From Felis catus (Eukaryota), in the NCBI RefSeq assembly GCF_018350175.1, contig NC_058380.1:91760001-91824000 (forward strand): DNA of 64,000 nucleotides. Direction: 5' to 3'. The position numbers and the translations under genes were made by a program. The notes below the pieces were generated by a model. The model was given only the letters and a program-made list of their open reading frames with translations. It made no database searches and was not told the origin of the DNA. Shown here one piece after another: positions 46,973-64,000 of the stretch (position 1 is its first letter; each line of letters begins with the position of its first letter).

Positions 46973-49390
46973 AAGACCAACTGCCTGTCTGTTGTGTCCG
47001 TTCACTTTAGGGACTGAGTGGCCCCTTGTGATGCTGGGGCTCCTCACCCAAAATTGCAGAGGGCCCAGCGTCTGTCTGAGTCTCATTTTGTGCCCTTTGT
47101 GCCCCCACCACCCTGGGGAGGGAGCTGATCTGCACTTGGCTCTCTTGTGGCTCATTCCCGAGCCAGGCTGGATTCGCTGGAGAGCGAGGTTCCTGGGTAA
47201 CGGGGGCCGTCAGAGGAAGCCAGGCTCCCCTCTGCGACACGCTGGCGGCAGGCCGGGCCCCGGCGGCAGGACCCTTATGTCCTCTGGTCCCGACTCTGGA
47301 CCCTGAGCTGAGGACGGACGGTCTCTTTTCAGGGCTGGAGAGGTGTGACGTGGGCACGGTGTTGCTGCGGAGACAGAACTCTGGATGGGTGTTTGAGAAC
47401 CCCTGTAAGGTGACAGCCTCCGCGGTGTCCCTCGGGGTGCGGAGCAGCATGGGGATGGGCTCGCTCGCCCGGCCAGCACTGTGGGAAGGGGAGGGGATCG
47501 GTCACCCCCAGACTCCCTCTGTGGTATGCAGGGGGGTGGCCCTCTGCCCCCGTGGGGACAGGACCGGGGGAGTGTGACCCCGGATGAGCTGGAACAGGCC
47601 CTCGCCAGCTGGCCATCCCTCACCGGGGACCCGGGGACCACGGGGTTCTGGGGCTCTGAGCTTGCCGGGGGGCCTCTCGTGTCTCCCAGCCCTGGGCGTG
47701 TCAGACTGCCGGGTGCTGGGCACCGACTTCAGTGACTACGCCATCGTCTTCACCCAGCTGGAGTTCAAGGACGAGGCCTTCAGCACCGGGAGCTATACAG
47801 TAAGTGGAGGAGACCCCGGGCCCGCCCACAAACTCCCTGCCGGCCACAGCCACGCTGTGCGGGAAGCACATCGTCCCAGGGTCCGGGGCCAGAGAGAGGG
47901 GCCCGCCGCCTGGGCTGGCCCCTGTGCCCCCAGGGACCCGGTGCCTCGCCATGGCCCTCTCTGCCTGGGGCCTCATCCCTGCACTCCCCCTGCTGCAAGA
48001 GGGGCAGCTGGGGCGGGGGGCACAGGTGTGAAGGTCCCCTCCTGCCCCACAGGTCGCACGGAGCTGGCCAGCCAGGAGGCCGTGTGCCTCTTCACCAGGT
48101 GGAGCAGGGGCCTGGGCTTCCTGTCCCAGCAGCCGGCCACGCTGCAGCGGGACTGTGAGTGTCCCCCGGGGCCGCCCCCCACGCCCAAGGGTCCCCCGGG
48201 GCCGCCCCCATGCCCAAGAACCCGCTCACTTCCGCTGGTCTCGGGGAGCCTCCCGGCCTCAGTGAGTCAGGCAAGACTAGGGAGGGTGAGTTCTTCAAGG
48301 AGTCACCTGCTCCCTGCCCGAAGTCAGGCCGACAGGGGAGGCCCCGTCTCGGGTGAGGCTGTGGGCCCGACCTCACGACTCCCCTTGTCCCCCCAGTCAC
48401 CTGTGCGCACAAGGCCTTCCAGGTAAGCTGGCTTCCCAGCATCACCCCGTGTCCTACACCCCAGTGCTCTGCAGCCGTGAGGGGCCGGGGACCCGGGTGG
48501 AGGCAGACTCCCCTCGAACCTGGGGTCCTCCAGTGCTCTTCCTGGTTTTCAGTGAATGCTTCGCCTCCAGTGGGGACAGTGCCCACCGTGTCCGGGCGAG
48601 GCCAGCCAGGCGCTGGCAACCTGCTCAGCCACCCGGGTGCTGGGTGCTGGGTGCTGGGTGCTGGGTGCTGGGCAGGTGCTCCCAGGGACTCTTGCTGCGT
48701 TTCCAAATAAAGCAATTCCACAAACCGCTGTAGTTACCTCTCACTCGTGTGCTGGGCTGGGCTCGGTGTTGAGGGCGGACAGAGATGGACGGGGAGCTGC
48801 TCTCGTGGGGCTCGGGCCACACAGGGAGAGGATAGGGTGCGGTGGGCACACCCTGGCTGAACCACACGGCAGAGAGCCAGCTCGGGGGCGAGAGGGCCGG
48901 CCTGCACTTGTGTCCCTCGGCAGAGTCCCTCTGGGTGGGGGGACCCGCACACATGGGTCTTGGCTGGGGAGTAGGGGCTGGGCCGGAGGCAGCCGCTCCC
49001 CAGGGAGGGATCACACAGCCCCGGGCCGATGGGAGGGTTGTCTGCTTGAGTGAGAGCAGGCCTGCAGTTCGAGTTCGGACAGGGTGCTGGGCCGACGAGG
49101 TGGGCACTGGTGCCCACCGGGGTGCTGGGCTGGGGCACCTCGGAGTCCGGGGCAGGGCTCTGGGGCAAGGCCAGGGGCCCAGGATTGCAGAGGCCTGGCC
49201 TGTGGGTCCTCCTGTGGTCTGGTGGGGCCCTGCCGGAGGTCCTGGCAGAAGCTGGGGTGGGGGCTGCCCATCCCTCACGGCGAGGTGGGGTGCACGCCAG
49301 GAAGGCGGCAGGCGGGCACATACAGGAGAGCTGCACGCACACGCACACGCACCCCATGTGCCTGTGCACACACACCGGCTGCCCCCTCTG

Positions 49391-50275
49391 TCAGCACCTG
49401 CTCAGGACAGACCCCCCGTCAGCACCTGCTCAGGACAGACCCCCCGTCAGCACCTGCTCAGGGCAGACCCCCTGTCAGCACCTGCTCAGGACAGACCCCC
49501 CGGCAGCACCTGCTCAGGACAGACCCCCCGTCAGCACCTGTTCAGGGCAGACCCCCCCGTCAGCACCTGCTCAGGGCAGACCCCCCTTCAGCACCTGCTC
49601 AGGACAGACCCCCCGTCAGCACCTGCTCAGGACAGACCCCCGTCAGCACCTGCTCAGGGCAGACCCCCCTTCAGCACCTGCTCAGGACAGACCCCCCGTC
49701 AGCACCTGCTCAGGGCAGACCCCCCATCAGCACCTGCTCAGGACAGACCCCCCCCCCTCCGTCAGCACCTGCTCAGGACAGACCCCCCCCCGTCAGCACC
49801 TGCTCAGGACAGACCCCCCTTCAGCACCTGCTCAGGACAGACCCCCCGGCAGCACCTGCTCAGGACAGACCCCCCGTCAGCACCTGTTCAGGGCAGACCC
49901 CCCCGTCAGCACCTGCTCAGGGCAGACCCCCCTTCAGCACCTGCTCAGGACAGACCCCCCGTCAGCACCTGCTCAGGACAGACCCCCGTCAGCACCTGCT
50001 CAGGGCAGACCCCCCTTCAGCACCTGCTCAGGACAGACCCCCCGTCAGCACCTGCTCAGGGCAGACCCCCCATCAGCACCTGCTCAGGACAGACCCCCCC
50101 CCCTCCGTCAGCACCTGCTCAGGACAGACCCCCCCCCGTCAGCACCTGCTCAGGACAGACCCCCCTTCAGCACCTGCTCAGGACAGACCCCCCCGTCAGC
50201 ATCTGCTCAGGGCAGACCCCCCCTCAGCACCTGCTCAGGGCAGACCCCCCCGTCAGCACCTGCTCAGGGCGACCC
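49391..50275. repeat. About 28-bp minisatellite, 31 units, upstream of LCN10
   Basis: Unit TCAGCACCTGCTCAGG(A/G)CAGA(C)5-10(G/T). An internal 12-unit (346-bp) block is present twice. Confidence 0.95.
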
Positions 50276-50645
50276 TGCAGTCAGGTCCTCCTTCTCACAC
50301 GCAGATAACCTTGTGAAGTGACTCATAGTGACACTAGCTGGCTGTTGTCTCTCTTCCGGGGGTGGGGAGCTAGTGTGAGAGGCCCAGGGCTCCCACTGTG
50401 AGGAGGGACGGCTCCAGGGGACACGTGGTGACCTGAGGTCTGGGGGGAGTGACCTCGGGAACACGATGGTTTTGTCTGACGCCTCCCAGGCAGGCGGCAC
50501 CGACCAGGCTGAGCACCTGGGCCGGCCCTCTGTGCCCGGGGCAGGAGAAGGCCCGCAGCCCCCCGGCCTCCCCATCGGCCCACCCCAGGCCGGCTCAAGG
50601 CTCCGGGTTGGTTGGACGGCCACGGCAGGGTCGGTGGGTGGGGAG

Positions 50646-50652
50646 ATTTAAA
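50646..50652 (+). promoter_or_regulatory. TATA-like element of LCN10
   Basis: ATTTAAA 42 nt upstream of the ATG, matching the LCN15/LCN8 spacing. Confidence 0.55.
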
Positions 50653-50687
50653 CTCAGTGCCCTGGTGGCCGAAGAAGGAGGCTGAAG

Positions 50688-62345: not shown

Positions 62346-62557
62346 TTAATTTTTTGAACGTCTGTTTTTGAGACCGAGAGAGACACAGAGTGCGAGCGGG
62401 GGAGGGGCAGAGAGGGAGGGAGACACAGAATCTGAAACAGGCTCCAGGCTCCACGCTGTCAGCACAGAGGCCGACCCGGGGCTCGAACTCACGAACCGTG
62501 AGATCGTGATCTGAGCCGAGGTCGGACATTTCACCGACTGAGCCACCCAGGTGCCCC
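62346..62557 (-). mobile_element. CanSINE
   Basis: Reverse-complement body ending …gagccacccaggtgcccc; imperfect TSD tcgact(c/t)tctc(g/c)(c/t)ttt. Confidence 0.9.
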
Positions 62558-62569
62558 TCGACTTTCTCC

Positions 62570-62871
62570 TTTTAAACATTTAACATGGTACAAGTCCCTG
62601 ACCTTAACTACGCTTCCTCTGCCGGGCGCCATCACCACCATCTAGTTCCAGAACATCTGCATCACCCCAAGCAGAAAACCAGTCCCCGCCGAGGGGTCAG
62701 GCGCTGGCTCTTGCCGACCCCCCGTGCTCCCCGGCAACCAGCGACGTGGCTCCCGTCACTATTTCTTTACTTATCATTATGAGTTTTTCACACGGGTGAG
62801 ATCCTACAGCGTGTGGTATTTTCTGCCTGGTTTCTGCCACTTAGTATAACGTCTTCTAGTTCACCTACGTC
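62570..62871 (-). mobile_element. Old L1 3' fragment, truncated near the duplication junction
   Basis: catcaccaccatctagttccagaacat…catcaccccaa…tttctgccacttagtataacgtcttctagttcacc. Confidence 0.65.
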
Positions 62872-62902
62872 GGAGGTGCCTGGGAGGCTCAGTTGCTTAG
62901 GA

Positions 62903-64000
62903 CCCTGCCGGAGGTCCTGGCAGAAGCTGGGGTGGGGGCTGCCCATCCCTCACGGCGAGGTGGGGTGCACGCCAGGAAGGCGGCAGGCGGGCACATACAG
63001 GAGAGCTGCACGCACACGCACACGCACCCCATGTGCCTATGCACACACACCGGCTGCCCCCTCTGTCAGCACCTGCTCAGGACAGACCCCCCGTCAGCAC
63101 CTGCTCAGGACAGACCCCCCGTCAGCACCTGCTCAGGGCAGACCCCCCTTCAGCACCTGCTCAGGACAGACCCCCCCGTCAGCATCTGCTCAGGGCAGAC
63201 CCCCCCTCAGCACCTGCTCAGGGCAGACCCCCCCGTCAGCACCTGCTCAGGGCGACCCTGCAGTCAGGTCCTCCTTCTCACACGCAGATAACCTTGTGAA
63301 GTGACTCATAGTGACACTAGCTGGCTGTTGTCTCTCTTCCGGGGGTGGGGAGCTAGTGTGAGAGGCCCAGGGCTCCCACTGTGAGGAGGGACGGCTCCAG
63401 GGGACACGTGGTGACCTGAGGTCTGGGGGGAGTGACCTCGGGAACACGATGGTTTTGTCTGACGCCTCCCAGGCAGGCGGCACCGACCAGGCTGAGCACC
63501 TGGGCCGGCCCTCTGTGCCCGGGGCAGGAGAAGGCCCGCAGCCCCCCGGCCTCCCCATCGGCCCACCCCAGGCCGGCTCAAGGCTCCGGGTTGGTTGGAC
63601 GGCCACGGCAGGGTCGGTGGGTGGGGAGATTTAAACTCAGTGCCCTGGTGGCCGAAGAAGGAGGCTGAAGATGGGACCGGGGAGGCTGGTGCCCACGCTG
63701 GTCCTGGCGCTTGTGCTGGCCATGGGGTCCCAGCCACAGGAACAGCTGCCCAGGGAGGCCCACAGCCTCAACTGGAACAAGGTAAAGCCGTAGGCCTGCT
63801 GTCCCCCGAGCCAGGCACCCAGGCCGTGGGGGCCAGGGATCGTCCGAGCGTGGGCAGCTGGAAGATCGCTCCCTAAAAATCTTCCAAGGGCCTTCGCGGG
63901 GCCCTGGGCAGTGCCCTGAGGCTGGCAGGAGTCTCCGGCACAGGCCCCTGCCAGCCCAGGGGGACTGCCCCCCCGGCCTCTCCCAGAGCAGCTGCCGGCC
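62903..64000 (+). repeat. Segmental/tandem duplicate of 49228-51017 (LCN10 upstream region, promoter, exon 1, start of intron 1)
   Basis: Collinear and near-identical; the ORF track gives identical peptides at offset 12983. Visible differences: G49364 vs A63039, and 7 vs 31 minisatellite units (63066-63258). Confidence 0.95.
63671..63781 (+). CDS. LCN10: Second copy of LCN10 exon 1 (rest of gene beyond the window)
   Basis: Identical to 50688-50798, including the upstream ATTTAAA and the GTAAAG donor. Confidence 0.8.

Follow-up and report, generated by a model that had tools for sequence, protein, structure and literature searches.

LCN10 probably lies in a tandem array of about 13-kb units in the lipocalin cluster of the domestic cat

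Introduction

How many copies of LCN10, a lipocalin gene of sperm maturation, does a cat carry, and how did they arise? The question was raised by 64,000 nucleotides of Felis catus DNA (assembly GCF_018350175.1, contig NC_058380.1, positions 91,760,001 to 91,824,000 of the forward strand), which we call the window and whose first letter is position 1 below. A sequence-only reading had placed a very recent tandem duplication at its right end, giving a second LCN10, and had slightly favoured a real event over two haplotypes assembled in tandem. It had also taken LCN10 to be single-copy in human and mouse, and one gene in each is what PMC6381713 reports. We found that the feature is very probably real and larger than had been thought, LCN10 most likely being present in several near-identical units.

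The repeat unit and its junction

The repeat and its first gene consist of the following features.

49228..62902, forward strand: repeat unit, copy 1; 13,675 bp with a long minisatellite and 12,983 bp with a short one, delimited by its breakpoints and by fairly even contig depth in two sequencing runs described below (X1 and X4)
49390..50275, forward strand: 28-bp minisatellite upstream of LCN10 copy 1; 31 units, with an exact 346-bp higher-order repeat
50645..50655, forward strand: TATA-like box of LCN10 copy 1, its role being suggested by its position
50688..53849, forward strand: LCN10 copy 1; six coding exons (50688-50798, 51455-51594, 51910-51980, 52249-52356, 53349-53447, and 53821-53849), 185 amino acids, intact, with GT-AG sites and an open frame
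62903..64000, forward strand: start of copy 2, comprising the upstream flank, a minisatellite of 7 units (63058-63258), the TATA-like box (63628), and LCN10 exon 1 (63671-63781) with its donor and the beginning of intron 1

When the window was compared with itself, 49228-51017 and 62903-64000 were its one long duplicate other than short interspersed elements (SINEs), with a single difference in 906 aligned bases outside the minisatellite (G at 49364 versus A at 63039; 0.11%, Poisson 95% range 0.003-0.6%). The TATA-like box, exon 1, and the GT donor did not differ between the copies (50645/63628; 50688-50798/63671-63781). The sequence-only reading had described just this repeat, with one substitution and with promoter, exon 1, and donor in copy 2, and its description was accurate. 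Its unit of about 13.7 kb holds to the left of the minisatellite, where the period was 13,675 bp, and not to the right, where it was 12,983 bp, because the minisatellite has 31 units in one copy and 7 in the other. Copy 2 is visible for 1.1 kb of the window, and its LCN10 is represented there by exon 1 alone.

The minisatellite lies approximately 400 bp upstream of the LCN10 start, and its length differs fourfold between the copies. Every 28-bp unit contains CACCTG, which we take to be an E-box-like motif; the length difference could lead to copy-specific LCN10 expression.

The gene had been named LCN10 from its sequence, and the name stands. Exon 2 showed 100% identity to Felis catus LCN10 models and 91-98% to those of other felids, and the spliced copy 1 protein was 97.3% identical to the clouded leopard (Neofelis) LCN10 P0008, which scored above the cut-off for Pfam Lipocalin; in a tree, copy 1 grouped with the cat models. 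TMEM141, LCN15, and LCN6 were confirmed upstream, and LCN10 stood at the position expected of it. The same cluster contains, also upstream, a gene that we take to be LCN8-like. The locus is the cat epididymal lipocalin cluster. Two NCBI cat LCN10 models on one contig of 95,154,158 bp differ at residue 83 (R in P0006, S in P0009). In rodents, the lipocalin cluster lies within an evolutionary breakpoint region (PMC5521730).

The junction between the copies was sharp, switching abruptly at 62902|62903, and the window contains no N, as the sequence-only reading had noted when it spoke of a junction without a gap. Two SINEs are located beside it.

62873..62902, forward strand: SINE head cut at the junction after 30 bases; 23/30 bases match the consensus of 16 other SINE heads in the window, followed by 6/15 beyond the cut
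62350..62558, reverse strand: whole SINE of what we take to be a carnivore family

The 30 bases to the left of copy 1 and the 30 to the left of copy 2 shared 6/30 positions; the SINE was severed and fused to unrelated unique DNA. Non-allelic recombination between two SINEs was therefore rejected, since a SINE head is present on one side only and the identity to the left of the copies is 6/30. An assembler would therefore have had no overlap by which to join two haplotypes at this place. The structure of the junction points to a non-homologous first duplication, followed by turnover through unequal crossing-over.

LCN10 copy number in other cats

Sequencing runs were searched with 54000-63057; 24 were listed, and 20 of them held at least half of the 931 words. 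Four of the 24, from three studies and under two organism labels, were compared over 50300-63057, X23 and X24 as raw reads and X1 and X4 as contigs. Each raw-read run comprises 1938 million letters, which would give 0.79x at a single-copy locus if the genome is assumed to be a rounded 2.45 Gb (2.42 Gb is given for cat in PMC8006817), and depth was taken from eight of nine bins over 50300-54133, the 52004 bin being dropped for its poly-C run. LCN10 depth was 6.4x and 5.1x in the two cat-labelled runs, giving ratios of 8.0 (6.8-9.5) and 6.4 (5.3-7.7), whose intervals overlap and which come from one study. The presence of two copies was rejected in both (P 1e-41 and 2e-25, respectively).

For contigs, SINE-only joints served as background (13 in X1 and 12 in X4 of the 14 such joints listed; mean depth 12.1 and 16.9, respectively), and two X1 contigs inside the high-copy part of the unit were left out of the set. 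Six long X1 contigs reached 5.3-7.2 times the background mean and eight long X4 contigs 5.3-13.6 times, each exceeding the deepest background contig by a factor of 2.6 or more. The excess covered the unit between LCN10 and the junction, the SINE head included. Depth in X1 was nearly flat (64-88) at four places, LCN10, 54.6-54.9 kb, 60.4-61.9 kb, and 62.5-62.9 kb, which is the pattern that joint amplification of the entire unit would produce. By this indirect calibration, LCN10 was in more than two-fold excess in all four runs compared. The several-fold excess in other cats therefore indicates that LCN10 most likely stands in an array, in which each haploid genome has about 3-8 near-identical units of 13 kb. 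The sequence-only reading had named half depth over both copies as the sign that would tell against a duplication; the opposite was found, which bears out its slight preference for a real event. Its single "very recent" event giving "a second LCN10" was not supported, depth in 4/4 runs pointing to about 3-8 copies per haploid genome.

Over LCN10, the contigs differed from the window by 0.28% (X4) and 0.47% (X1); the 0.11% between the window copies was not significantly different from 0.28%. At 50866/63849, both window copies have C, and T was found in 6/6 reads and both contigs; the shared C is a weak hint of homogenisation. Because the amplification was seen under two organism labels, near identity is more likely to reflect recent exchange than the birth of the array, and it probably dates the last exchange inside the array, not the array's origin.

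Weighing the array against other explanations

We give a probability of about 0.72 to the reading that about 3-8 units per haploid genome form a real head-to-tail array, which started by non-homologous or microhomology-mediated joining, went on by unequal crossing-over, and likely raises the epididymal LCN10 dose. In the putative founding event, the SINE head at 62902 would have been joined to unique DNA at 49228 by one of these two routes. Unequal crossing-over between long identical units would then expand the array, keep its copies near-identical, and reset the length of the minisatellite, and the LCN10 dose in the epididymis would, as a likely effect, become higher and variable. The end of the window would represent the first junction of the array, and past 64000 each unit of approximately 13 kb would carry LCN10 and a piece of the high-copy RALGDS-like family described below.

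Several points weigh against this reading. Among the reads and contigs listed, none crossed 62902|62903 (198 joints and 1405 loose ends fell outside that list); X1 contigs stopped at 62892 and X4 contigs at 62873, and SINE reads crowded the tables. Contig depth is not a copy number, and background contigs may have been counted twice. The raw-read ratio presumes even sampling and no strong enrichment by guanine-plus-cytosine content, X23 and X24 share a study, and the compared stretch (50300-63057) contains no single-copy control. Depth also says nothing on arrangement, and the extra LCN10 copies could be dispersed. In X4, depth fell to about 90 over 52037-53465 and was halved at exons 4-5, so that some LCN10 copies may be partial. 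At 50866, 52149, 52631, and 53113, a non-window allele was found in 30/30 reads, and the runs therefore represent haplotypes other than that of the window. Finally, the available supplements of PMC6288940, a published list of cat copy-number variants (CNVs), contain no LCN gene, and the four shared D4 regions given there lie at or below 83.9 Mb.

Real copies that are dispersed or partial are improbable; here the 5' part of LCN10 (or a mosaic duplicon) would have been duplicatively inserted into a SINE, with no regular array. Such an arrangement would suit the mosaic of depth along the unit (about 6-8x at LCN10, 22-24x at 60.5-62.2 kb, and 50-440x at 55-60.5 kb), the halved X4 depth over exons 4-5, and the 1.1 kb to which the visible part of copy 2 is confined; in contrast, the nearly equal X1 contig depth at the four places given above argues for a unit amplified as a whole.

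An assembly artefact, in which two haplotypes or a misjoin in a collapsed repeat were set in tandem, is quite improbable. Multi-copy regions are prone to misjoins, a divergence of 0.11% with unequal minisatellite lengths is what two alleles would show, and the reads listed include none spanning the junction. However, there is no gap, the join offers no shared sequence to overlap on, other cats have excess depth rather than half depth, and two differing cat LCN10 models are located on one contig. One very recent private duplication with exactly two LCN10 copies, as first proposed, is very improbable. Near identity and an allele at 50866/63849 that is common to both copies and absent from the four runs would fit it, but a more than two-fold excess was present in 4/4 runs from three studies and under two organism labels.

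The high-copy segment carried by the unit

Downstream of LCN10, the unit contains segments whose depth exceeds that of the gene.

54986..60523, unstranded: high-copy family segment of 5.5 kb; 42-348x raw depth, about 50-440 copies per haploid genome; no long terminal repeat (LTR) pair and no Pfam domain
60524..62227, unstranded: second elevated segment; about 22-24 copies per haploid genome by raw reads; CpG-rich and of low complexity at 61.5-62.2 kb
57646..57783, reverse strand: exon-like frame of 46 codons from ATG to donor; no match in searches
59569..59676, forward strand: decayed exon; homologue of the tail of LCN10 model P0030 from elephant seal (37.4 bits versus 20.4 for the best control)
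61133..61341, forward strand: frameshifted piece resembling, by eye, a RalGDS chain before and into the Ras-association domain

The family at 54986-60523 reached about 50-440 copies in the two raw-read runs and was a few-fold above LCN10 in X1. Most of its members share alleles unlike those of the window copy (for example at seven listed sites in 56890-57011) and have an insertion or small duplication at 56450-56467.

Tails of eight automatically annotated LCN10 models from other carnivorans were tested against the window. In addition to the seal tail, that of polar bear P0053 matched 57198-57326 (45.8 bits versus 26.2 for controls), and those of walrus P0074 and P0065 matched 56.4-56.6 kb by a modest margin (34.3 versus 27.7 bits). 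Three further tails had their best match at 54.2 kb, just behind LCN10 and outside the high-copy part, and one had no match above control level; none of these four exceeded the controls within the high-copy segment. Depth thus showed the high copy number, and the seal, bear, and walrus tails showed adjacency of the family to LCN10 in other carnivorans.

With part of a walrus LCN10-model tail, 5/5 matches in PDB were RalGDS chains (best E 0.013). The frame at 57646..57783 presumably resembles the start of carnivore "RALGDS-like" gene models, and we take the decayed exon at 59569..59676 to derive from RALGDS. The label RALGDS-like is partly our assumption, because the window pieces alone gave 0 PDB matches and the seal P0030 tail alone did not match RalGDS. 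Pfam searches with 7 and with 90 frames of the 55-62 kb element gave 0 matches at the cut-off and one sub-threshold chance match (E 0.029); protein searches with the same element returned only unnamed translations of the same family, and the Atlas returned no usable match. An LTR element or endogenous retrovirus at 55-60.5 kb was rejected, as neither a long direct repeat nor a domain was found. An origin from the Y amplicons was not supported, the sources given in the available part of PMC6280758 being A2, A3, and an X-derived endogenous retrovirus and not the LCN10 locus. In other species, RALGDS has been reported to be copy-variable in pigs (PMC3716681) and partly dark or camouflaged in dog (PMC7875987).

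LCN10 in other carnivorans and decay of its neighbours

A tree was built from 37 of 88 homology-search matches together with LCN10 copy 1. The seven walrus LCN10 models, comprising five sequence types, formed one clade (support 0.85), and a jaguar and lion pair (P0014 and P0015, respectively; support 0.997) branched separately from the LCN10 of tiger and leopard. It thus appears that the gene multiplied on more than one occasion within Carnivora. The jaguar model was 88.6% identical to copy 1, and the changes in this diverged jaguar/lion paralogue cluster near residues 46-48 and 123-127. Three Steller sea lion LCN10 models, located on short contigs, may represent fragments or alleles. Outside Carnivora, a pig study placed LCN10 inside a common CNV region (PMC9195146).

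Two neighbours of LCN10 show signs of decay. Read with canonical splice sites, LCN6 (43455-48422) loses its frame twice, where exon 3 begins (47333) and where exon 4 ends (about 47786-47790). Of these two sites, the first is skipped in the lynx model P0001, which has the same shifted residues at the second, in exon 4. Rows in the supplement of PMC4676127 give cheetah LCN6 a ratio of nonsynonymous to synonymous substitution rates (dN/dS) of 999. LCN6 is probably a felid pseudogene. The LCN8-like gene (33757-35760) has ATA at the expected start codon of exon 1, its exon 2 could not be placed, and its exons 3-5 look readable; it is possibly the second decayed member of the cluster.

A wider proposal, which we regard as doubtful, is that a RALGDS-derived core duplicon has stood beside LCN10 since early Carnivora and seeded independent blooms in cat, lion/jaguar, walrus, and sea lion. 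Under this proposal, LCN10 dose in felids would offset the decayed LCN6 and probably LCN8, and copy number would be a hidden, variable determinant of sperm maturation.

Comparison with known systems

Tandem amplification of lipocalins is already well known as a mechanism. The mouse Mup "evolutionary bloom" comprises 22 genes and 29-30 pseudogenes (PMC6381713). As in that bloom, the cat array would have arisen by local amplification, in one lineage, of a secreted lipocalin that other mammals have as a single copy; unlike Mup, it involves epididymal LCN10 and not urinary MUP, it is smaller, and its unit contains a high-copy non-lipocalin segment. Human AMY1 is a tandem, multi-allelic copy-number array maintained by unequal crossing-over. 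The cat locus would resemble arrays of the AMY1 type in its long near-identical head-to-tail units, its one founding junction, and a copy number that is expected to vary, whereas variation between cats is represented here by overlapping intervals around 6.4 and 8.0. Primate "core duplicons" include NPIP, GOLGA8, and TBC1D3. As in those families, a high-copy and probably gene-derived core lies beside a flanking gene that seems to have been duplicated repeatedly in separate lineages. The cat unit departs from them in having a RALGDS-like, carnivoran core and a junction within a SINE, about 2.4 kb past the segment of highest copy number, and the role of the core as driver of duplication is putative.

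Automatic annotation already includes cat "LCN10-like" and LOC123381705 models, the diverged lion/jaguar copy, seven walrus models, and three Steller sea lion models. In the literature searched, mostly outside subscription journals, no interpretation of these models and no description of the cat LCN10 amplification, its copy number, its unit, or its junction was found. The word "lipocalin" was not found in the available parts of PMC11216403, PMC8006817, PMC4676127, and PMC13047762, and LCN10 was not named in the supplements of PMC6288940 (four files) or PMC4676127 (three files).

In mice, Lcn9 knockouts were fertile, Lcn5/6/8/10 knockouts were subfertile, and five-gene knockouts were mostly infertile, indicating that the clustered epididymal lipocalins are redundant (PMC10506895). 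A felid cluster with an amplified LCN10 and a decayed LCN6 would offer a natural test of whether paralogues compensate for one another in dosage, and LCN10 copy number would be a measurable candidate for variation in feline sperm quality and male fertility. If the array is collapsed or under-represented in the reference, short-read variant and CNV calls at this locus will be incorrect.

Minor observations in the window

An Rfam search over the window found a tRNA-like SINE head at 664-747 alone and no snoRNA downstream of LCN10. Two inverted SINEs at 659-1095 form a palindrome of about 440 bp (83%). A second minisatellite, with a 15-bp unit in about 53 copies, occupies 25235-26028, approximately 1.8 kb upstream of LCN15.

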